This document shows positions 21,171 to 42,800 of a DNA stretch of 64,000 nt, in pieces. The notes under the pieces are model-generated. The model was not told the DNA's origin, searched no databases, and saw nothing but the letters and a program-made list of their open reading frames with translations. The position numbers and the translations under genes were made by a program. Source of the DNA: Coleofasciculus sp. B1-GNL1-01 (GTDB lineage Bacteria > Cyanobacteriota > Cyanobacteriia > Cyanobacteriales > Coleofasciculaceae); the NCBI GenBank assembly GCA_040220235.1, contig JAVJTO010000051.1. One strand, written 5' to 3'. The stretch's first letter is position 1. Every line of letters begins with the position of its first letter.

Positions 21171-22136
21171 GTGCTATTACCTTTGATGCCGTAAGGCGTT
21201 GAGCACGCTCGCAAAAAAACGGTTTCTGACGTGATACGTGAGTGCTATTACCTTTGATGCCGTAAGGCGTTGAGCACAAAACTTAGTGTTCGACAAAGAT
21301 AACACTGTATCGTGCTATTACCTTTGATGCCGTAAGGCGTTGAGCACGATAGATTTTTATTCAGCCTATCGTGGATTTTTTGGGTGCTATTACCTTTGAT
21401 GCCGTAAGGCGTTGAGCACAGAGCATTTAGACCTACGGCGCTACCCAAGCCAGTTGTGCTATTACCTTTGATGCCGTAAGGCGTTGAGCACCCTTCCTAG
21501 AGGGTAAATACTATACTTTATCTTTAGAGTGCTATTACCTTTGATGCCGTAAGGCGTTGAGCACTGAACCGTATTCTCTTTCAAATCCATCGTGACTGTA
21601 GTGCTATTACCTTTGATGCCGTAAGGCGTTGAGCACGTTCTCAGCCGTGTTTAAGATTGTTTGATTTCCCTGGTGCTATTACCTTTGATGCCGTAAGGCG
21701 TTGAGCACTAGTAAACGAGCCTGGTCAAAAGGGCTGTCCTGCTGTTGTGCTATTACCTTTGATGCCGTAAGGCGTTGAGCACTTAGTTTAAGCTGTCAGC
21801 AAGCAACTGAGAATAAGTGCTATTACCTTTGATGCCGTAAGGCGTTGAGCACGATACAGTGTTCTTGGGAAAAGAGCACCTAGAGATCTGTGCTATTACC
21901 TTTGATGCCGTAAGGCGTTGAGCACCTCCTTTTCGGAAAGAGGTATTGTTCGAGCCTCTGTGCTATTACCTTTGATGCCGTAAGGCGTTGAGCACAGACT
22001 AATAACACACAACAAGACACTCGGTTAAATGTGCTATTACCTTTGATGCCGTAAGGCGTTGAGCACGAAGAATCCTTAGATGCGATCGCGAATAGTTCTC
22101 GTGCGATTACCTCAGATGCCAATCGGCGTGTTCAAC
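21171..22136 (+). CRISPR. CRISPR array 1: 13 identical 36-bp repeats plus 1 degenerate terminal repeat, 13 spacers (34-38 bp)
   Basis: Repeat GTGCTATTACCTTTGATGCCGTAAGGCGTTGAGCAC; terminal repeat gtgcgattacctcagatgccaatcggcgtgttcaac at 22101-22136. Confidence 0.99.
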
Positions 22137-24119: not shown

Positions 24120-24155
24120 TTAAGATTACCTCGGATGCCATTAGGTGTTGATTGA
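24120..24155 (+). repeat. Isolated degenerate CRISPR repeat just after cas2
   Basis: ttaagattacctcggatgccattaggtgttgattga keeps ATTACCT and hairpin GATGCC-ATTA-GGTGTT. Confidence 0.75.
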
Positions 24156-24291
24156 TCATGTTTTAACCTCTCTCCTACAAGGAGAGAGTGCTTTTCTACT
24201 CTTGGAAATGGTGTATCACATTGAGTCTGAAAACGCTGTAGCAGCGAGCAAGATGTTAGCAGCGAGCAAGATGCTCGCACTACTATAAGGA

Positions 24292-24357
24292 TGGGTTTGG
24301 GAAAGGCTTGCCAAACCGATTGGCAGTTATTATGATTTAAGAGTTCCTGTGATCGCT
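24292..24357 (+). promoter_or_regulatory. Truncated third leader (promoter part only)
   Basis: Matches the last about 65 bp of leaders 1/2 at identical spacing; TTGCCA(24308)-17-TATGAT(24331). Confidence 0.85.
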
Positions 24358-24542
24358 GTGCCATTACCTTTGATGCTGTAAGCGTTGAGTAGAGTAGAGT
24401 AGAGTACCCATTAGGTGTTGAGCAGAGCAGCGTTGAGCACTATCCCGTAAGTTGGACAGTTGCTGTGAAGCGGGCGGTGAGATTTATTCTTACTTGGGTC
24501 TTGCTGTCCTTGTTCCCTCAGATGCCGTCAGGCGTTTTTCTT
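24358..24542 (+). ncRNA. Degenerate mini-CRISPR / crRNA-like regulatory RNA targeting the cas6 promoter
   Basis: Repeat 5' half gtgccattacctttgatgctg, 49-nt insert, 3' half cagcgttgagcac, guide tatcccgtaagt..., downstream degenerate repeat ccctcagatgccgtcaggcgtttttc. Confidence 0.75.
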
Positions 24543-24558
24543 GAATTTCCTTTTACTG

Positions 24559-24587
24559 TTGACGAGGTGTATAAACCAATGTATCCT
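24559..24587 (+). promoter_or_regulatory. Sigma70-type promoter of the cas6-cas3-cmx8-cas7-cas5 operon
   Basis: TTGACG-17 bp-TATCCT, about 150 nt upstream of the cas6 ATG. Confidence 0.7.
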
Positions 24588-24668
24588 GTAAGTAAGAATA
24601 GAACATCTTAAGCCAGATGGTGCTGAAATTTTGGCTGGTGGGCAATACCCACCCTACGACTGATTTGA

Positions 24669-24714
24669 GTGCCATTCATCCCCACCTCTGATCGCCGTCA
24701 GGCGCTGAAAACAC
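24669..24714 (+). repeat. Degenerate CRISPR repeat in the cas6 5' UTR
   Basis: gtgccattcatccccacctctgatcgccgtcaggcgctgaaaacac; hairpin CGCC-GTCA-GGCG. Confidence 0.7.
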
Positions 24715-24736: not shown

Positions 24737-25372
24737 ATGAATTCGACAATAGTAGAACGGCAAACAGGTGCGTCTCCTATCGAACTGTTTGTCAATTTAA
24801 GCTTTAGTATTCAAGGACAAATGCTGCCGGCTGATCACGGCTTTGGCTTGTTTTCGGCTTTATCTAAACTTTGTGCGGCGATTCACCAGCAGAATGAAAT
24901 TCAGATATTGACGATTCCCGGTATTCCCGATCGCCAAGGGAAGATTGCGCTGACGGATAGATCGCGCCTGCTGATTCGTTTACCGATTACCAAGATTCCC
25001 TTGGTTTATGCGATCGCGGGAAAGCGAGTTCACATTGGTAATCATCCCATCCAGATTGGGATTCCCAGGATTGAACCCCTCAACGCCAAGTCAAGGGTGC
25101 GATCGCGGATTGTGACGATTAAAGGTTATACCGAACCCGAATCCTTCCTCCAGGCGGCGCAGCGTCAACTGAATCGGTTGGGGGTGTCGGGAGAGGTGCG
25201 AATTCCTCTAAATCGGGATCAAACACCAAAGCGCAAAGCGATAAAAATTCAGCAGGATACGGTAGTTGGATTTACCACTGAAGTTAGCCATCTTAGTGAA
25301 GAGGATTCCCTGACATTGCAACGGTGGGGATTAGGAGGGCGGCGACACATGGGTTGTGGGGTGTTTTTGTAA
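24737..25372 (+). CDS. cas6: Cas6 (Cmx6) crRNA endoribonuclease
   Basis: LPADHG, C-terminal glycine loop GLGGRRHMGCGVF. Confidence 0.95.
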   Translation: MNSTIVERQTGASPIELFVNLSFSIQGQMLPADHGFGLFSALSKLCAAIHQQNEIQILTIPGIPDRQGKIALTDRSRLLIRLPITKIPLVYAIAGKRVHIGNHPIQIGIPRIEPLNAKSRVRSRIVTIKGYTEPESFLQAAQRQLNRLGVSGEVRIPLNRDQTPKRKAIKIQQDTVVGFTTEVSHLSEEDSLTLQRWGLGGRRHMGCGVFL

Positions 25373-25497
25373 CCACTGATTTGACAGATTTATGGGGGAG
25401 ATGGGGGTGGGGGTGAGAGGTTAGTCACACTGATTACACTGAAACGTTAGTTCTCTCGTCTTGGGATGCTGAATCTGCCGCGAAAATTAGGTTGATT

Positions 25498-27849
25498 ATG
25501 TCTAAATTTAAACGACTTCTGGCTAAATCTATCTCTGATTCTGACTCAATTCGGAGTCAAAATGCGGCAAGATTTATAGGTCATATTGCTTTAGTTAAAC
25601 GAGGGGCTGAGGTATTACTTCAGCGTTTAGATAAACGGATTTTTCAACAACTGGGATTGGATGAGAATGAAGTGGAATTATTTACCAATACGGTGAGATT
25701 GGGGGCGTACTTACATGATTGGGGTAAGGCAAATCAGCATTTTCAAGAGATGGTTTATCTGCATACTGCCAAAAAATCCCAAGATCCGAAAAAACGGGAC
25801 AAGCTTAAACAACTGCGTCAATTATGGAATAAACATCAGGGTAAACAAATGATTCGCCATGAAGTTTTAAGCGGTATCCTCGCCTTGCGTGTTCCTGAAT
25901 TTCGCCATTGGTTAGAACAATGTCCCAATACTAATCTGGTGATAGCTGTTTGGGCGGCGATGGGACATCATTTGAAGATGAGTTCTGACCTGGACTTGAC
26001 AATCCGTAGTGGTACCGGAAGTGGTTTATTTATTTATACCGACCACAATGATTTTAAACAAATGTTAAAAATGGGTCGGCAATTGGGACTCCCGGCTAAT
26101 TTGCCTGCCGTTCCTGGAAAAGTTTGGCAGAAGGAAGAACTAGAACGAGAATTAAAAGAATTATATCAGGAATTTGACCAGATTGAACAGCAGATTATCG
26201 CTGAAAACGATACTAGGCGACTGAGATTTATTGCGGCGGTGAAAGCTACGGTAATCGCGGCGGATTTAGCGGGTTCGGCTTTACCTGTTGTGGACGAGAA
26301 TATTAAGGATTGGATTGAGAACGTTTTATCGATTACCCTATCTGAAAACGACTTAGATCAGGTTCTCCAACAACGACTGCAAGGGAAAAAATTACGCCCG
26401 TTTCAACAGAAAATTGCCGCGACTCCCCATCGAATTACTTTAGTTAAAGCCGGGTGTGGTACGGGAAAAACCGTTGGGGCGTATGCGTGGGCAAAAAAAT
26501 GGGCAGGCGATCGCAAGTTATTTTTTGGCTATCCGACGACGGGAACCGCGACTCAGGGGTTTATTGATTACGCCCATGAGACAAAAATTGAAGCCGATTT
26601 AATGCATTCTCGCGCTGATTTAGACCGAGAGATCTTGTTTTCTGGGGATGAAGATGAAGGGATTGAGGATCGCTTAGCCGCCCTCACCGCTTGGAGACAA
26701 AAGTTGATTGTTTGCACCGTAGATACGGTTTTGGGGCTAATGCAAAATAATCGGCGATCGCTGTATTCCTGGAGTGCGATCGCTCAAGGGGCTTTTGTGT
26801 TTGATGAGGTTCATGCTTATGATAACCGCTTATTTGGGGCTTTATTGCGATTTATAGACACCTTTCGCGGCGCACCCATTCTGTTGATGAGTGCCAGTTT
26901 TACACCAGAACAGATTCAGGCAATTCAAGGAGTAGTTGGCGAATTAGGAGAAGCGACTCAGATTATTGAAGGTCCGAAAAATTTAGAAGTTTTACCGCGA
27001 TATCAGATTGAGTCTATCCCATCAGCCGATAACGCTTGGCAGAAGGTGCGAGAAACCTTAACTCGTCAACACCAGAATAAAGTGTTATGGGTGACAAATT
27101 CGGTTAACACCTGTCGGGAACTGTATCTAGAGGCAAAAAAACAGCTTCCGGATTCAATCCCTATATTAATTTATCACAGTCGCTATCGCTATTTTGACCG
27201 ATTGGAGAAACATAAAGCCGTGATCAACGCCTTTGAACGTGACGGGGCGGTGTTAGCAATTACCACTCAAGTTTGTGAAATGTCCTTAGATTTGAGTGCG
27301 GATTTATTAGTCACGCCCATCGCCCCAGCATCGGCGTTAATTCAGCGATTAGGGCGATTAAATCGGCGGGTGATTACTACAGCAAACTATCGGGTAAAAC
27401 TGGCGTCGGGTCAAATTACCCCAGCCTTAGTTTACCCCTGGGATGATTCACGTCCTTATTCCCAAGACGAATTAGAAACGGGACAGCAGTTGGTTAATAA
27501 ACTAGCCGAAAAAGTGATTTCCCAGCAAGATTTAGCCACGATTGTCGCCCAAATGTCTACTCCAGAACAACAGCCAAGTCAATCGGAATGGTTAGAGGGA
27601 TGTTGGTGTACCCGTCCTAATTTTCTACGGGAACCGGGCTATACGATTACGGTTTTACTAGAGGAAGATTTAGTTAATATTAAAAATGCCGCCAATCAAC
27701 GTCAGGATAAATCCTTTAAAAAAGAACGTCAACGGTGGACAATTCCAATTCGGATTATCCCTGGGTTTGAGAAGTGGCGGCGGAATGGATATTATCCCAT
27801 CGCACCCCCTGATCAAGTGGAATACAGTTCAGAAACAGGGGCAAAATGA
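25498..27849 (+). CDS. cas3: Cas3 HD nuclease-helicase
   Basis: HDWGK, RHE, GHH, AADLAGS; GCGTGKT, DEVH, MSAS, QRLGRLNR. Confidence 0.96.
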   Translation: MSKFKRLLAKSISDSDSIRSQNAARFIGHIALVKRGAEVLLQRLDKRIFQQLGLDENEVELFTNTVRLGAYLHDWGKANQHFQEMVYLHTAKKSQDPKKRDKLKQLRQLWNKHQGKQMIRHEVLSGILALRVPEFRHWLEQCPNTNLVIAVWAAMGHHLKMSSDLDLTIRSGTGSGLFIYTDHNDFKQMLKMGRQLGLPANLPAVPGKVWQKEELERELKELYQEFDQIEQQIIAENDTRRLRFIAAVKATVIAADLAGSALPVVDENIKDWIENVLSITLSENDLDQVLQQRLQGKKLRPFQQKIAATPHRITLVKAGCGTGKTVGAYAWAKKWAGDRKLFFGYPTTGTATQGFIDYAHETKIEADLMHSRADLDREILFSGDEDEGIEDRLAALTAWRQKLIVCTVDTVLGLMQNNRRSLYSWSAIAQGAFVFDEVHAYDNRLFGALLRFIDTFRGAPILLMSASFTPEQIQAIQGVVGELGEATQIIEGPKNLEVLPRYQIESIPSADNAWQKVRETLTRQHQNKVLWVTNSVNTCRELYLEAKKQLPDSIPILIYHSRYRYFDRLEKHKAVINAFERDGAVLAITTQVCEMSLDLSADLLVTPIAPASALIQRLGRLNRRVITTANYRVKLASGQITPALVYPWDDSRPYSQDELETGQQLVNKLAEKVISQQDLATIVAQMSTPEQQPSQSEWLEGCWCTRPNFLREPGYTITVLLEEDLVNIKNAANQRQDKSFKKERQRWTIPIRIIPGFEKWRRNGYYPIAPPDQVEYSSETGAK

Positions 27850-27909
27850 TTTGTAGGGGCGCTATCCTTGCGCCCGAAAAACTCAAGGAAACGCCAATAA
27901 TTTGAATCA

Positions 27910-28080
27910 GGGCGGGTTTTGTTGTTCATTTATCGGTGAGGAGGGCGGGTTTTGTTGTTCATTTATCGGTGAATATCTGAATTTAGTCCCTAAACCCGCC
28001 CCTACAGATTCCCTAAACCCGCCCCGACAATTGATTCCCTAAACCCGCCCCGACAATTGTCCCTAAACCCGCCCCGACAA
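27910..28080. repeat. Compound REP-like palindrome cluster (gggcgggttt ... aaacccgccc x4)
   Basis: Duplicated left arm and four tandem ccctaaacccgcccc right arms between cas3 and cmx8. Confidence 0.8.
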
Positions 28081-28130
28081 TCCGGATTAATCAAAGGTAA
28101 ATTCATAACTAATAGGTCGATTAAACGTTT

Positions 28131-29633
28131 ATGTCAACCCAATTAACTTTAAAATTAAATAATCCTCACTTTACTTTACTCCATCGCGCCGGATTAGCTG
28201 GGTTATGGATGAGTTTAAAGCAACTTGAAGCCGAAACAAATATTCGCGATCGCCCGGGTTATATTACCTGGGAACTAACACAGCGTCAGGTGAGTTTACA
28301 GTGGGAGGGAGAGGATTTTCAAGTCTTAAATTGGCTATTAAACGAATCCTTTCAATTAGACGATGGACGGATATCTTTAAGAGGATTAGTCTCGAAGACA
28401 ATGGACATTCAATCTCAGTTAATCCTGCACCAAGGTATCCTGGGAACATTTTTACAACATAATAAAACCCATACATCTACAGGACTTGTCTCTAAATCCT
28501 TTGTGATTGAAGAAGGTAAACCCGAATTAGTGGCGCGATATAAACATCTCTCTGGATACATCTATCAACAGGCAAAAATACTGTGTGACAAGCAGGGAAA
28601 ATTCCTCACCAAACCGATTAAAGTACCGGGATGGTTAAATCCGGGGACAGTAGTACGACATATTGCCTTTAGTTCCAGTACCAGCTTTGAAGAACCACCA
28701 GACGCCGTATTCGTTTTATTATTTGCCGCCGTAGCCTGTTGTTACTATTCGATTCGGTCTAAATTACGGGATAAACGGGCAGAATATGCTTTAGTAATTC
28801 CCGAAATTACCGACTTAGCCGCTTATGCCAATTGGCGGCGTCATCGGAAATGGCGCGAGGAGGGATACAAGGACTTTTTTGCCTCTGGGTTAGGGGATGC
28901 GGGGTTAAAATTTTTGACTTATATTACTAAGGATATTTTGGCAGAACGTCCCTTACAACGCTGTCAGGTGATTACATTAGGAACAGTTCCTTGGGCAAGT
29001 CAACAAAAAACGCGCACGGATTTGTATTTAGTGGAGGCAAATGAACGAATTGAGCGGAATTATCAGGTTTGCGATAATTATTTAAGTACCCGTGATGTGG
29101 CGGGGAAAGAAGGGTTGTTTATTTCCTGTAGTTTTGCCAGGGAGTTAATTGCAGAAAACTTAGCCAGGGGTAAACATTGGTATGCAGGTTTGGCAGATAA
29201 TGCCACAAGTAACGAGTTATTTCAAAAATTGACCTATGAACGCGGAGGACTAAATCAGATGGTTCAAGAAGTGGAATGGGATCGAGAAAGTGAGAAGCTA
29301 TTTGTCAAGGCTTGTCATGAAGCGATCGCCTATAACCATAAACAACTTTATAAACGAGCAAAAGAGAAGAAGGAAGAGCCGAATTATGAACGGGAGGATA
29401 CCAAATTTCGCACCGGATTAGCACGGTGTAAAACCGCTGTGGCGTTTCGGGAGTTTATTACCGATTACTTGTCGAGGGCGCAATTTATGCCCACCCTGGA
29501 GGAAAATTGGGAAGAGTTTATGGATTTGATTCTGGGGGCAAAGGATTGGAAAAAAGGACGAGATTTAGCGTTATTAGCCTTAGCCAGTTATCAGCGCAGT
29601 AGTCAGAGTCAAGAGGAGGAATTTGATTTTTAA
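28131..29633 (+). CDS. cmx8: Cascade large subunit Cmx8 (Cas8, type I-B/MYXAN)
   Basis: LLHRAGLAGL, GTFLQH, GWLNPG..VRH, QQKTRT, DLALLALASY. Confidence 0.92.
   Translation: MSTQLTLKLNNPHFTLLHRAGLAGLWMSLKQLEAETNIRDRPGYITWELTQRQVSLQWEGEDFQVLNWLLNESFQLDDGRISLRGLVSKTMDIQSQLILHQGILGTFLQHNKTHTSTGLVSKSFVIEEGKPELVARYKHLSGYIYQQAKILCDKQGKFLTKPIKVPGWLNPGTVVRHIAFSSSTSFEEPPDAVFVLLFAAVACCYYSIRSKLRDKRAEYALVIPEITDLAAYANWRRHRKWREEGYKDFFASGLGDAGLKFLTYITKDILAERPLQRCQVITLGTVPWASQQKTRTDLYLVEANERIERNYQVCDNYLSTRDVAGKEGLFISCSFARELIAENLARGKHWYAGLADNATSNELFQKLTYERGGLNQMVQEVEWDRESEKLFVKACHEAIAYNHKQLYKRAKEKKEEPNYEREDTKFRTGLARCKTAVAFREFITDYLSRAQFMPTLEENWEEFMDLILGAKDWKKGRDLALLALASYQRSSQSQEEEFDF
29259..29633 (+). CDS. cas11: Cas11 small subunit from an internal in-frame start in cmx8 (124 aa)
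   Basis: GGAGG at 29244-29248 and in-frame ATG at 29259 (MVQEVEW); internal Cas11 translation is established for I-B/I-C/I-D. Confidence 0.8.
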   Translation: MVQEVEWDRESEKLFVKACHEAIAYNHKQLYKRAKEKKEEPNYEREDTKFRTGLARCKTAVAFREFITDYLSRAQFMPTLEENWEEFMDLILGAKDWKKGRDLALLALASYQRSSQSQEEEFDF

Positions 29634-29728
29634 TAGTAAATGTTGTCAGGGCGTGTAGGGGCGAAGCATTGGTGCCACCATCTTTATCCGAATCCGAATA
29701 ATTTTGGGTTTTAATCATCAATTGAATC

Positions 29729-29792
29729 AGGGCGGGTTTCGTTGTTCAGTTATCAGTCACCCCCTTAATTAAGTCCCTAAACCCGCCCCTAC
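29729..29792. repeat. REP-like palindrome between cmx8 and cas7
   Basis: agggcgggttt...aaacccgcccct. Confidence 0.75.
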
Positions 29793-29846
29793 AGCCCAGA
29801 TCTCAACCCCAAAGTAATCAATTATCAACCATTTGGAGAACAAATC

Positions 29847-30767
29847 ATGACCTTTCATTTATTTGGCAATATCTTAACTAGCTACGGCACCGCCGCCAAT
29901 AACCGTGGCGAAAATGAAGGCAATATTACCACCCTGCAAAAACTCCTCTGGAAAGGAGAGGTTCACACCACCGTATCCGCTGAAGCCATCCGCTGGGCGC
30001 TACGATACTATTGGCAAACTGCTGGGGGTGACTATGCGGTAAATCGCTGTTGGGATGATCAGAAAAATGATAATGTTTTACAGGGGAGTTTTGATGAAAC
30101 CACCTACATTGATGATGATGTCCTCGGTTACATGAAAGCGGAAGGGGCGAAACAAGAATTTAGTGACGAAGAGAAAAAAGGGAAAGGGAAGAAAGCCAAA
30201 GGGACTAATTTAGCAAGGCGGGGAGTCTTAGAAGTCACTCGCGCTGTTTCCACGATTCCTTATGCGGGAGATATTACCTTTAATTCCGCCAGTGGACAAA
30301 AGGGGAGAACCTCTCTTTATGGCACAGAAGTTCACGCCACGCGCTATCAATATGGGTTCGCTTTAACCCCTAATCGATTGAAAGAGACATCTCGGATCAT
30401 TCCAGTGTTAGACGGGTTAGTATCCCTAGGAGAAGTCGCCGGAAACCACGCCCGTTTTCTCTATGATTTTTCGCCAGAAAGTTTAGTCTTGCGGTGGACA
30501 CAGGATTTCTCGCCTCGGATTCTCTATTGTTTCCAGGAAAATGAAGATGGGGAGATATCTTTGCCCAGTTTAATCCATCGTGTGGAAGTGGGAGACATTG
30601 AAGCAACGGAACTTTGGGTAGCCGGTGCAATTGCCAAAACCCCAGAGGGCGATCGCTTGGAGGAATTAGGTGCTAATGTGCTAGCGGGGACAAAAGTAGC
30701 ACTTTCGACGCTAAAACAACGGATTGCTGATGATTTACAGTTACCGCAATTGGAGGGAGTATCATGA
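29847..30767 (+). CDS. cas7: Cas7 (Cst2/DevR)
   Basis: ANNRGENEGN, VSAEAIRWALR, DDDVLGYM, EVHATRYQY, GNHARFLYDFSP. Confidence 0.96.
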   Translation: MTFHLFGNILTSYGTAANNRGENEGNITTLQKLLWKGEVHTTVSAEAIRWALRYYWQTAGGDYAVNRCWDDQKNDNVLQGSFDETTYIDDDVLGYMKAEGAKQEFSDEEKKGKGKKAKGTNLARRGVLEVTRAVSTIPYAGDITFNSASGQKGRTSLYGTEVHATRYQYGFALTPNRLKETSRIIPVLDGLVSLGEVAGNHARFLYDFSPESLVLRWTQDFSPRILYCFQENEDGEISLPSLIHRVEVGDIEATELWVAGAIAKTPEGDRLEELGANVLAGTKVALSTLKQRIADDLQLPQLEGVS

Positions 30768-31396
30768 TTACCGCCCTCAAAGTTGAGGTTCCCATCGCCT
30801 GTTTCCGTGTCTCCCGCGCCAGGGAATATGCCCAAACTTATCCGGTTCCGCCTCCAGCTACGGTTTATGGTATGCTTTTATCCATGGTGGGAGAAATGGA
30901 TCGATATCGGTATTGTGGGACTAAGTTAGCGATCGCACTATTAAATGAGCCGGAAAAATCCACCATCCTCCGCACCTTTCGCCGATTCAAAAAGAAGCAA
31001 ATCTTTGATCCCACGAATGCCCGTCCTGATTATCAAGAGTTACTCAGTGATATTCAGTTTATCGTCTGGGTAGCCTCTGGAAACGACAACGCCCAACCAA
31101 CATTATGCCAACGATTAACCGAGGCGATCGCGAATCCAGAAACGGTGGATCGATTTGGTGGGTTAAGTTTGGGTGAAAGTCGGGATTTAGTCAATGCGAT
31201 TAATTTGTTACCGGAAGACTATCGGGGTGAATCCCTACGCTGGTTAGTGCAGCAGGAGGATGGTTTGTTAACATTACCCTATTGGGTGGATCACGTTGGT
31301 TCAAAAGGAACCCGTTGGCAACGATTTCAGTTACTTCCTCCCCGTGAATGGTGTCAACCGCCGGATAATGCGTGGATAGAGATTCGGGTGGAGTAA
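30764..31396 (+). CDS. cas5: Cas5 (Cmx5/DevS)
   Basis: VPIACFR, TYPVPPPATVYGMLLS, LSLGES, LPYWVDHVGS. Confidence 0.96.
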   Translation: MITALKVEVPIACFRVSRAREYAQTYPVPPPATVYGMLLSMVGEMDRYRYCGTKLAIALLNEPEKSTILRTFRRFKKKQIFDPTNARPDYQELLSDIQFIVWVASGNDNAQPTLCQRLTEAIANPETVDRFGGLSLGESRDLVNAINLLPEDYRGESLRWLVQQEDGLLTLPYWVDHVGSKGTRWQRFQLLPPREWCQPPDNAWIEIRVE

Positions 31397-31661: not shown

Positions 31662-31981
31662 GTGCTATTACCTTTGATGCCGTTAGGCGTTGAGCACAGG
31701 ATATTTTGGCTGATTTATAGCATTTTTGTCTAAGGTGCTATTACCTTTGATGCCGTTAGGCGTTGAGCACGATAAGTACTTTTGTAAGTATCCTCGCTTT
31801 AATTGTGCTATTACCTTTGATGCCGTTAGGCGTTGAGCACATCAATCAGCATGAAGAAAGCAGCCAGCAACTTAATGTGCTATTACCTTTGATGCCGTTA
31901 GGCGTTGAGCACCGTTGTCCAGTGGTACTTGAATCAGTTTCCTGAGTGCTATTACCTTTGATGCCGTTAGGCGTTGAGCAC
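31662..31981 (+). CRISPR. CRISPR array 2: 5 identical repeats, 4 spacers (33-37 bp)
   Basis: Repeat GTGCTATTACCTTTGATGCCGTTAGGCGTTGAGCAC (loop GTTA versus GTAA in array 1). Confidence 0.99.
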
Positions 31982-39870: not shown

Positions 39871-42800
39871 TTGAACGATTTTACTCTAGCCAATCAGGAG
39901 TCTTTAGATGAATTAGCCTGGGCAATGGAAGCCTGTCAGGGACAGTTTTGCCTGATGTTGGCGCGTTGTAACTATGGGTATTTGCAACAACGCCTGATCC
40001 AGCAACTGCAAGACGAATGCACCTTCGACATCCGACTTATTCACCTGAAGCCAGACGACAAAACCCTATTTAGCACCGTGCGATCGCAACTCGGACAGGA
40101 GATGCCTTCTGCCCTTATGGTATCTGGCTTTGCCACTTTAGACAATCTGGACGATATGTTCGCGGCGATGAATCAGGTGCGGGAGGAGTTTCGCAAGAAT
40201 TTCCCCTTTCCTTTTATCCTATGGATGAATGATCTGGTTTATATTCGACTAATGAGAATTGCACCAGATTTCGAGAGTTGGGCAACAACAACCGCGTTTG
40301 CGATACCAACGGATGAGTTAATTAATAGTCTCCAGCAGGCTGTAAAGTCCCTATTTTCTAAAGCTTTAGCCGTCAATTCCCCTCAATCTTTATCTCAGTT
40401 AACCAAAAATTTAGACCTCGGTTACTTAACTCGTTCAGAATTCGAGTTAGCCTTAAAAGAATTATCCCAGCGCGAGATCGAGTTAACCCCCCAGTTTGCA
40501 GCCGATTTAGCATTTCTACGAGGAATAAATGCGGGGGATAGTCCAGAAGCCTTAGATTATCTTCAAAAAAGCCTAGAATTTTGGCAACAACAAACCGATG
40601 GCGGGGCGGGTTTTACCTTAAAAGTAGGGTTAGTATTATTTCAAATTGGACTCTACCACTATCACACCGTTAACCGCAAAAAACACCGCCAAGCAAATTG
40701 GCAAACCGCCAAGATCCCTTTACAGCAATGTCTAGAACTATTTGAACGAGAAAATCGTCCCGATTTAGTGGCAAAATGCATTACCCAACTCGAACGAGTT
40801 TTGCAACGGATGCAATCTTGGGATGAATTAGAACAAGTGGTACAAAAGGCGTTATCGTTGCATCAACGGTATAGCAGTATCAGTAGATTAGCCCAAGATT
40901 ATAGCTTTTTAGCCGAAGTCACCTTACAACAACAACGCTGGGAAGATAGTCGTCAAGCCGCACAACAAGCTGAGGATATTTTAGCCCAACTCCCCGAACA
41001 GAAGCGATGGTTTCAGGGATTAAACTTGCTATTTCTAGCCCAAGCGGAACGCCAGTTAGGGAATAAACAGGACGCGATCGCGCATTTGGTGCAAGCCAGA
41101 GATTTAGGTGATAAAGGACATCCTTTAGTTTATATCCGAATTTTAGCCGAATTACGCGATCTTTACTTTGAAGAAAAGCACTATTTAGAAGCTTTTGCTA
41201 TAAAGCAACTACGGCGTTCTATTGAACAACAATATAGTATTTGCGCCTTTATTGGTGCGGGAAGACTACAACCACACCGACAAGAAGCGTCAGCCAAAAC
41301 CGATAATCAAGAAACAGTTGCACCGGAAATTATCGCATCAGGGCGACAGCGGGATTTAGAGCGATTATTGGAACGAATTGGACGGAATGACTGTAAGCTA
41401 ATCGTGATTCATGGACTATCTGGTGTGGGCAAAAGTTCCCTCGTGAATGCGGGATTAATACCAGCGTTGAAGCACAGAGTTATTGGTATTCAAAATAATT
41501 TACCTCTTTTAATCCGAGTTTATACCAATTGGCTAGAGGACTTGAGCAAGCAATTAGCAACAAATTTCGTAACGGATGAGTTAGAGGAAGGAAAAACGGC
41601 AAATAATCCTGTAGAGGCGGGTTTAGACGATAACCTTTCTAGAAAACCACTAACCTCTCAACAAAACCCGCCCTCACCTTTTCAGGATGTAGACAATAAC
41701 ATCTCCAGAAAAACACCAACCTCCTTCCAAAACCCGTCCTACGCCAAAATACTGGAACAATTACGGCAAAATGAACAGCACAATATCAGGACGGTGCTAA
41801 TTTTTGACCAGTTTGAAGAATTCTTCTTTGTTTATCCCAATTTAGCGCAACGGCGACCTTTTTGGGACTTTTTAGGAGACTGTCTAAATATTTTATCAGT
41901 TAAAGTAATTCTATCGCTGCGGGAGGATTACCTGCATTATCTTTTGGAGTGCAATCGCCTCGATAGCATGAACGTCATTGGTCATGACATTTTAGGTAAA
42001 AATGTGCTATATGGATTAGGGAATTTTTCACCCGCAGATGCTCGATCAATTATAGAAGATTTAACCACGCGATCGCGCTTTTACCTAGAACCTGCCTTAA
42101 TTGATCAACTGGTCAAGGATTTAGCGGGTCAAACGGGGGAAATATTACCCATTGAGTTACAGATTGTTGGGGCGCAACTGCAAGCGGAAAACATTAAAAC
42201 TTTGGCTGACTATCGAGAGGTAGGAACGAAAGGGGAATTAGTCAAGCACTATGTCGAAGCTGTGATTGAGGATTGTGGTATTGAGAATCGACAAGCAGCG
42301 GAATTAGTGCTGTATTTACTGACGGATGAAAAGGGAACTCGCCCGCTAAAGACTCGCGCTGAATTAGAACGGGATTTAAAGGAGTTAGTTGATGAGTTAA
42401 CGGCAGACGCGAGTAAATTAGATTTGGTACTCAGGATTTTTGTTGAATCGGGATTAGTGTTTCTATTACCAGAGATTCCGGCGGATCGCTATCAATTAGT
42501 TCATGATTATCTAGCCGCGTTTATTCGTCAGCAGCAACAACTCGGATTATTAGTGGAATTGGCAGAAGCAAGGGAAAAGCAGAAGTTAACCGAAGCTCAA
42601 TTAAGGCAAGCACTAAAAGAGAAAGAAGCGGCATTACATAAAGAACAACAGGAACGTCAACGGGCAAAACTGGCAGAATATGAAGCATTAAATTCCTTAT
42701 CTCAGCTACTCTGGTCATCTCATGATCAGCTAGGAACTTTATTGGCTCTTGTCAAAGCGGGTAAAAAATTACAAGAGATAGCCGATTTGGTGTCATCAGA

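Follow-up and report, generated by a model that had tools for sequence, protein, structure and literature searches.

In the current study, we examined a stretch of 64,000 nucleotides (nt) from the cyanobacterium Coleofasciculus sp. B1-GNL1-01 (GenBank assembly GCA_040220235.1, contig JAVJTO010000051.1), hereafter the window, which carries upstream of cas6 a small CRISPR-like element, or mini-array, with a guide matching the predicted promoter of the cas6 operon. The window contains a complete type I-MYXAN locus in the order array, cas4/1, cas2, a 625-nt intergenic region, cas6, cas3, cas8a1, cas7, cas5, and a second array, the first array having 13 repeats (21171-22066) and the second five (31662-31981). 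The leaders of both arrays are 89% identical over 299 nt, and their repeats differ at one loop base. Profile matches place the locus in type I-MYXAN, a variant of type I-B, with Cas6/Cmx6, Cas8a1/Cmx1, Cas7/DevR, Cas5/DevS, Cas3, and the Cas4/1 fusion all present. The Cas8 protein scores above the Cas8a1/Cmx1 cut-offs (TIGR03485/6) and below that of Cmx8 (32 vs 150 bits), so the Cmx8 label that the initial annotation of this DNA had given to the Cascade complex is wrong for this Cas8, which also matches chain I of PDB entry 8FCJ (E 4.8e-71). This is the sole I-MYXAN locus found in the genome, and its nearest named relative is a Coleofasciculus metagenome-assembled genome with a 98% identical Cas6. 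The Rfam families detected in the window were tRNAs alone. The mini-array lies in the intergenic region, and the features discussed below are the following:

24292..24357, plus strand: leader-derived segment with the predicted and presumably active promoter P1 (-35 TTGCCA at 24308-24313, 17-nt spacing, -10 TATGAT at 24331-24336)
24358..24440, plus strand: first pseudo-repeat, with a 47-nt insertion, a local hairpin (24373-24385), and handle copies at 24385, 24418, and 24433
24433..24440, plus strand: intact 8-nt 5' handle TTGAGCAC, the same sequence as the final 8 nt of the array repeat
24441..24471, plus strand: guide segment, of which positions 1-5 and 7-12 pair with the target; covaries in homologues
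24472..24509, plus strand: spacer hairpin of 15 base pairs (bp), pair probabilities 0.98-1.0, z -3.4
24507..24542, plus strand: second pseudo-repeat, Cas6-type hairpin retained (24521-24536), handle lost
24559..24587, plus strand: predicted cas6-operon promoter P2 (-35 TTGACG at 24559, 17-nt spacing, -10 TATCCT at 24582; scan score 9/12)
24579..24581, plus strand: ATG protospacer-adjacent motif (PAM), directly 5' of the target
24582..24593, plus strand: target (protospacer), 11/12 against guide positions 24441-24452, starting at the predicted -10 box
24669..24713, plus strand: Cas6-type hairpin derived from a third repeat, within the leader of the cas6 mRNA; a separate third repeat occurs in 11/30 guide-positive loci
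24737..25372, plus strand: cas6 (Cmx6), above the TIGR02807 cut-off, leading cas6-cas3-cas8a1-cas7-cas5
25492..31396, plus strand: cas3, cas8a1/cmx1, cas7/devR, and cas5/devS, effector genes predicted to be repressed; profile matches

The P1 promoter, handle, guide, and target coordinates had been given correctly in the initial annotation, while the second repeat, the spacer hairpin, and the third repeat are parts it did not contain. The element is a degenerate mini-CRISPR outside the arrays, whose first repeat supplies the 8-nt 5' handle and whose second repeat supplies the 3'-handle (hairpin) side. Its segment 24292-24382 shares 82-84% identity with the leader-repeat junctions of the two arrays, and P1 scores 10/12 in the promoter scan. 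The earlier description of the first repeat as a degenerate copy holds with regard to degeneration; it is not a simple copy, given the insertion (sized by alignment with an intact, unexpanded copy in locus L129, from the nearest other genus) and the three tandem handle copies. In the 66-nt spacer the first 12 nt form the seed, and the 3' half folds as the 15-bp hairpin, which may cap the guide at about 31-32 nt. Stems of 6-15 pairs occur at the equivalent place in 15/15 long-spacer homologues (mean z -1.85), with only 5/15 reaching z below -2. RNAalifold, applied to 18 loci, gave no consensus structure for the spacer hairpin and recovered the second-repeat stem alone, which gives no evidence of pair covariation in the former; in the latter, the GC/CG/CG pairs are invariant in 18/18 aligned loci.

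Guide and target agree at 11 of 12 positions, with the sole mismatch at position 6, and the ATG-flanked target starts exactly at the -10 hexamer of TTGACG-17-TATCCT, as previously reported for this locus. Pairing ends after position 12 (2/5 at positions 13-17), giving a partial, seed-anchored match beside a PAM. A search of both strands of the 8,664,607-base genome for ATG followed by guide positions 1-5 and 7-11 gave a single site, the target, against a chance expectation from base frequencies of 2.4e-5 in the intergenic region; no other exact target was found in the genome, and at one mismatch there are two ATG and four ACG sites. Regarding the array spacers of the window as a source for the PAM, elsewhere in the genome there is no full match to any of them that could serve as protospacer, and a plasmid search returned other arrays only. 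The trailers of both arrays, taken as guides, have no target within the window. The promoter scan of the intergenic region yielded two sites vs 0.8 +/- 0.9 in shuffled sequences, and the promoters alone are therefore weak evidence. The guide also matches the repeat core at 9/10 positions and repeat fragments are abundant in the region, which would fit a worn piece of repeat core that pairs with the promoter by chance. Because of this resemblance between seed and repeat core, homologues were needed to decide.

We assembled 101 cas6 regions (the window, 10 cyanobacterial loci, 30 further loci, and 60 from 95 genomes with a Cas8a1 match), of which 93 were left after removal of eight duplicates: 64 loci with cas3, 26 without it (cas6 adjoining cas8, transposon-like by gene order), and three others; individual loci carry L numbers below. 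The scan sought a handle-like 11-mer with at most two mismatches up to 1 kb upstream of cas6 and the best match of the following 11 nt, leaving position 6 free, on either strand and with no PAM demanded. The PAM entered one filter, which dropped tandem copies lacking ATG that lay no more than 40 nt from the handle. A handle was present in 33 of the 64 cas3 loci and a candidate target in 31, and ATG stood directly 5' of the best target in 29 of these 31. Guide-positive loci amounted to 30/64 with cas3 (29 detected automatically, plus L127 by its other handle) and 0/26 without cas3. In the clade of the window's Cas6 (23 rows, support 93/95, in a tree of 90 of the 93 loci), 20/23 were guide-positive, the three exceptions being a contig end, a target without one base, and a decayed copy. 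In many negative loci a long gene sits immediately upstream of cas6, and its annotation, where a record was read, is that of a WYL regulator.

The 29 automatic positives comprise 22 distinct seeds, each pairing with its own ATG-flanked target. When guides were swapped among loci, 0/462 combinations matched exactly and 9/462 at one mismatch, mostly between similar seeds. At positions 13-17, on which no selection of loci was based, 69/110 bases matched, vs a permutation mean of 34 (maximum 54 in 10,000). Type I complexes leave each sixth base unpaired. In agreement with this background, also given in the initial annotation, positions 6/12/18 were at the permutation level (20/66 vs a mean of 19). 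In L129, guide and target have both undergone a paired change, at position 7, and the same promoter is kept as TTGACT-17-TATCCT. The guide-target covariation that had been proposed as a check was thus found, with differing guides each fitting a target of their own, and, judging from these comparisons, guide-target pairing is under selection.

Loci outside this sample behaved similarly. A handle, guide, and ATG target were present in 5/9 named plasmid loci, one of which is the same sequence as L072, and were absent from those of UTEX 3055, NIES-970, PCC 7822, and Gloeobacter; pAQ4 of PCC 7002 was set aside as a comparison locus, being of type I-D and irrelevant. With the best four matches per locus considered, 13/45 mostly planctomycete loci (L011-L056) also had all three parts, and a good handle was likewise seen at two non-ATG chance matches. 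The covariation of unrelated guides, the PAM recovered de novo, the 6-nt periodicity, and the paired change in L129 all speak against array debris, which is refuted at the family level by the covariation and the out-of-sample loci and to which we give next to no credence for the window. The planctomycete mini-arrays are opposite in direction to cas6, lying mostly 500-660 nt upstream of it, two of them between cas3 and cas8.

A transcript from an equivalent element has already been recorded in Synechocystis PCC 6714, whose I-B system is of the Cmx8 type, with a Cascade measured to prefer an AYG PAM (PMC11096372). On its plasmid pSYLB, the handle starts at 41165 and the target at 41260. Table S1 of the differential RNA sequencing (dRNA-seq) study of Kopf et al. 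2015 (PMC5386190) gives TU6041 (pSYLB 41118-41245), non-coding and unannotated, as the first-listed pSYLB row with a mean of 19,447 reads and an alternative start at 41165, which is exactly the first base of the handle and hence a mapped RNA 5' end at the base equivalent to the handle start in the window. The same table places the start of TU6042 at 41300 (mean 374 reads); this unit runs through genes annotated hicB and hicA into cas6, and the guide-matched stretch covers -40 to -24 relative to its start. The target is therefore in or beside a cas promoter both in the window, at a predicted -10 box, and in PCC 6714, at a mapped start, and an RNA with the handle at its 5' end is seen in PCC 6714. 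We regard the expression in PCC 6714 as evidence for the family and not for the window strain. The element region (L177:3912-4353, equal to pSYLB 41118-41559) is followed by an unannotated open reading frame (ORF) of 65-68 amino acids (aa), hicB-hicA, and cas6.

Several points weigh against a working mini-array in the window strain or limit the comparative evidence. Due to the 47-nt insertion in the first repeat, no Cas6 hairpin is favored before the working handle: the long-range stem has a folding probability of 0.0 vs 0.92 for the competing local hairpin, which would expose the wrong handle, a composite hairpin is marginal (-0.1 kcal/mol), and the working handle itself is predicted to be partly paired. 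A single long-range stem as the only form of the first repeat is thus unsupported by folding in the window. P2 scores just 9/12 with a predicted rather than mapped start, and pairing is limited to 12 nt. Some near-copies remain in the homologue set, kin loci are non-independent, and the seed positions served to select the set. The 41165 end in PCC 6714 comes from a library treated with terminator exonuclease (TEX) and is possibly a transcription start rather than a Cas6 cut; either origin gives a correct 5' end at the handle. Four metatranscriptome runs (X1/X2/X4/X5) containing a strain that carries this element are available as contigs only and are uninformative on expression or ends; because of their flat depth and records of up to 109 kb, these contigs likely stem from DNA.

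These observations raise the alternative that the family is real and the window copy is decaying, in which case the insertion would make Cas6 cut at the first hairpin (24385), producing a wrong handle and guide, and the target would survive only as a -10 box. Besides the preference for the local hairpin, the length of a TAGAG run varies between strains, and decayed copies exist among kin, namely L129 (truncated copy, mutated second target), L135 (target without one base), and L007. Against decay, both L130 and the strain of the four runs have a constant handle, seed, and PAM and constant target positions 7-12 despite nearby base changes; the P2 target is unchanged in L130, L134, and that strain, with differing flanks, and the latter also keeps the handle, seed, and PAM unchanged. 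In addition, the 7-bp long-range stem amounts to -4.7 kcal/mol in isolation. Enlarged first-repeat stems are common in homologues (predicted at 0.9-1.0 in L062, L071, L123, L131, and L136, and poorly in others), and PCC 6714 has one and yet shows a 5' end at the handle. We consequently consider decay of the window copy unlikely.

The regulatory reading, in which Cascade loaded with the mini-array RNA silences the cas6 operon, is supported because the guides covary with their own ATG-flanked targets and because of the RNA and promoter data of PCC 6714. On this comparative ground, the element is a real, selected regulatory mini-CRISPR of the CreR/crlRNA kind with two repeats, and in the window organism Cascade with the mini-array RNA very probably represses the cas6 operon. 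In the proposed mechanism, P1 would give a short transcript whose 5' end would be formed at the handle (24433), by Cas6 or another route. Cas5, Cas7, and Cas8 would assemble on the handle and a guide of ~31 nt, with the spacer and second-repeat hairpins at the 3' end, and Cascade would read the ATG PAM and open an 11-12-nt R-loop over the P2 -10 box, which would be long enough to stop RNA polymerase but not to license Cas3. The cas6-cas3-cas8-cas7-cas5 operon would hence be repressed by its own product, and repression would lift once CRISPR RNAs (crRNAs) or anti-CRISPRs draw Cascade off. Processing in the window strain, P2 activity, repression, and sensing are all steps that we infer.

Across homologues, the targets lie upstream of the -35 box, over the -35 or -10 box, just past the predicted start, or in the 5' end of cas6. 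This range would agree with binding that has an outcome other than repression, such as activation, or with an RNA that acts mainly as a decoy for Cas6 or Cascade. Conversely, the window target covers the -10 box, the tested CreA/CreR cases repress, as far as the published accounts consulted describe them, and the Myxococcus operon is derepressed when Cascade genes are lost (bioRxiv 10.1101/2023.07.26.550624), which makes an outcome other than repression highly improbable. In L118, L119, L121/L124/L125, L128, L143, and L149, the target is in the cas6 5' end and the PAM is an in-frame ATG of cas6; the mini-array of these loci sits in the cas6 leader, and a roadblock would be the likelier mode there. 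Two targets each are present in L119 and the L121 group, one of those in the L121 group being in the loop of the first repeat itself. In L157, the mini-array is between cas3 and cas8 and its ATG target upstream of cas8, not cas6. In L129 the mini-array copy adjoining cas6 is cut at the handle, and a second, intact copy, whose local target is mutated, lies about 3.4 kb upstream of cas6; the intact copy may act in trans. A leader-type segment like that of the window also lies 5' of this intact copy, and no cas2 was seen there, for which reason we rejected the explanation of the window's leader segment as a relic of an array behind cas2.

The repeat in the cas6 mRNA leader is, from its sequence, a possible Cas6 site on Cas6's own mRNA. 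With second repeats counted, a Cas6-type hairpin within 260 nt of cas6 is found in 20/30 guide-positive loci, 6/33 negative cas3 loci, and 0/26 loci without cas3, and the pattern was not found in antisense and coding controls. Between the P2 target and this third pseudo-repeat lies a genome-wide repeat, and short elements at 24182-24291 and 24617-24658 are repeated throughout the genome. The 24182-24291 group adjoins the leader copy, which in the four-run strain extends further upstream. Another degenerate repeat (24120-24156) directly follows the cas2 stop and has a 13-nt piece in common with the insertion of the first pseudo-repeat.

The position between target and cas6 is also where a CreTA-like addiction module would be expected to differ from the autorepression proposed here, as the guide would then chiefly silence a toxic RNA or peptide expressed from P2, with cas repression as a side effect. 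Several homologues do have a small ORF there, with a shared family of 65-74 aa in L004-6, PCC 6714, and PCC 7424 and others in L062, L071, L117, and L182; hicB-hicA is present as well in PCC 6714, and devI is first in the Myxococcus operon. In the window, the interval between target and cas6 is just 143 nt and contains the genome-wide repeat together with the third pseudo-repeat; relatives carry 25- and 30-nt insertions in it. No ORF of at least 25 aa occurs between target and cas6 and the scan of the intergenic region found no divergent promoter, a result that cannot exclude a toxic RNA. Considering also that the small ORFs belong to no family above cut-off, we regard an addiction module in the window as very improbable. 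The small protein family (L004:3160-3363, L005:9638-9841, L177:4156-4350, and L179:2164-2385) shows weak coiled-coil matches and a conserved acidic/cysteine motif near the C end, and its PCC 7424 member makes up the C-terminal portion of an annotated ORF, which also runs across the mini-array. The other small ORFs at this position (L062:2216-2428, L071:2224-2448, L117:7133-7441, and L182:2072-2308) include some with weak helix-turn-helix matches below cut-off. Searches for the function of the small ORFs returned no Pfam family above cut-off and a best Atlas score of 0.90, to unnamed clusters. The shared family is a candidate CRISPR-guarded toxin in the devI position.

Taking these features together, we put forward as a speculation, doubtful as a whole, a two-layer RNA feedback in I-MYXAN systems, in which a hairpin-limited long-spacer guide with an insertion-tolerant first repeat would repress the promoter, and Cas6 would cut or bind the leader of its own mRNA. 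In some relatives, the guide would act as a roadblock inside cas6 or silence a small protein in the devI position, and RNAs of this class would supply the specificity factor that DevTRS autoregulation lacks so far and would also form a new protein-toxin addiction module.

Overall, these results would extend RNA-guided cas autorepression to the I-MYXAN clade in cyanobacteria and planctomycetes, and the covariation behind them is unusually clean. PCC 6714 lends itself to a direct test of the proposal: the element is present there as an abundant RNA that is unexplained, its target promoter is mapped, and the Cascade, purified and structurally solved, is used in genome editing. It also points to small unannotated proteins as possible CRISPR-guarded toxins.

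The initial annotation knew of no such description for a cyanobacterial MYXAN-type locus, and in the literature searched we likewise found none for cyanobacterial or MYXAN loci, although the kind of element is known from I-B cas6-promoter mini-arrays and CreR autorepression. The terms 'cyanobact' and 'MYXAN' are absent from the main text of Liu et al. 2023 (bioRxiv 10.1101/2023.03.10.532045), and no cyanobacterial or MYXAN example occurs in the main text and two PDF supplements of Shmakov et al. 2023 (bioRxiv 10.1101/2023.03.03.530964); the data files of the latter and the supplementary figures of the former may list some. Features that we have not seen described are the long hairpin spacer, weakly supported as noted above, the enlarged first repeats, the cas6-leader repeat, and small ORFs under the targeted promoter.

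In the sections consulted, Liu et al. show CreR autorepression for haloarchaeal I-B, I-E, and V-A systems, eased by crRNA load (text) and anti-CRISPRs (abstract and introduction). The window element shares with CreR the two degenerate repeats, with the 8-nt handle in the first and the hairpin side in the second, a short seed match with the canonical PAM at a cas promoter, and the lack of a toxin. It differs in its ATG PAM, the 66-nt spacer with an internal hairpin, the enlarged first repeat, and the third repeat in the cas6 leader. The mini-arrays (crlRNAs) predicted in silico by Shmakov et al. for I-B systems likewise stand upstream of cas6, aim at the cas6 promoter, and leave the sixth position free, a rule that the parts consulted state for every sixth base in I-F1; their typical spacers are 20-60 bp vs 66 nt in the window. 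Haloarchaeal I-B CreTA, as described in the portions consulted (PMC9458426), resembles the window in its degenerate repeats, the first being more diverged, and in Cascade as repressor, and differs in that no CreT-like element was found in the window and some homologues have a small ORF at the toxin position. The dev operon (DevTRS) of Myxococcus xanthus encodes the same Cas8a1/Cas7/Cas5 families, and deletion of these genes raised the dev transcript 10-fold (bioRxiv 10.1101/2023.07.26.550624), an autorepression of about 10-fold by Cascade genes. The parts of that account consulted name no guide RNA for this autoregulation, and the unexplained repression of dev by its own Cascade subunits would find a concrete mechanism in a mini-array RNA of the type proposed here.
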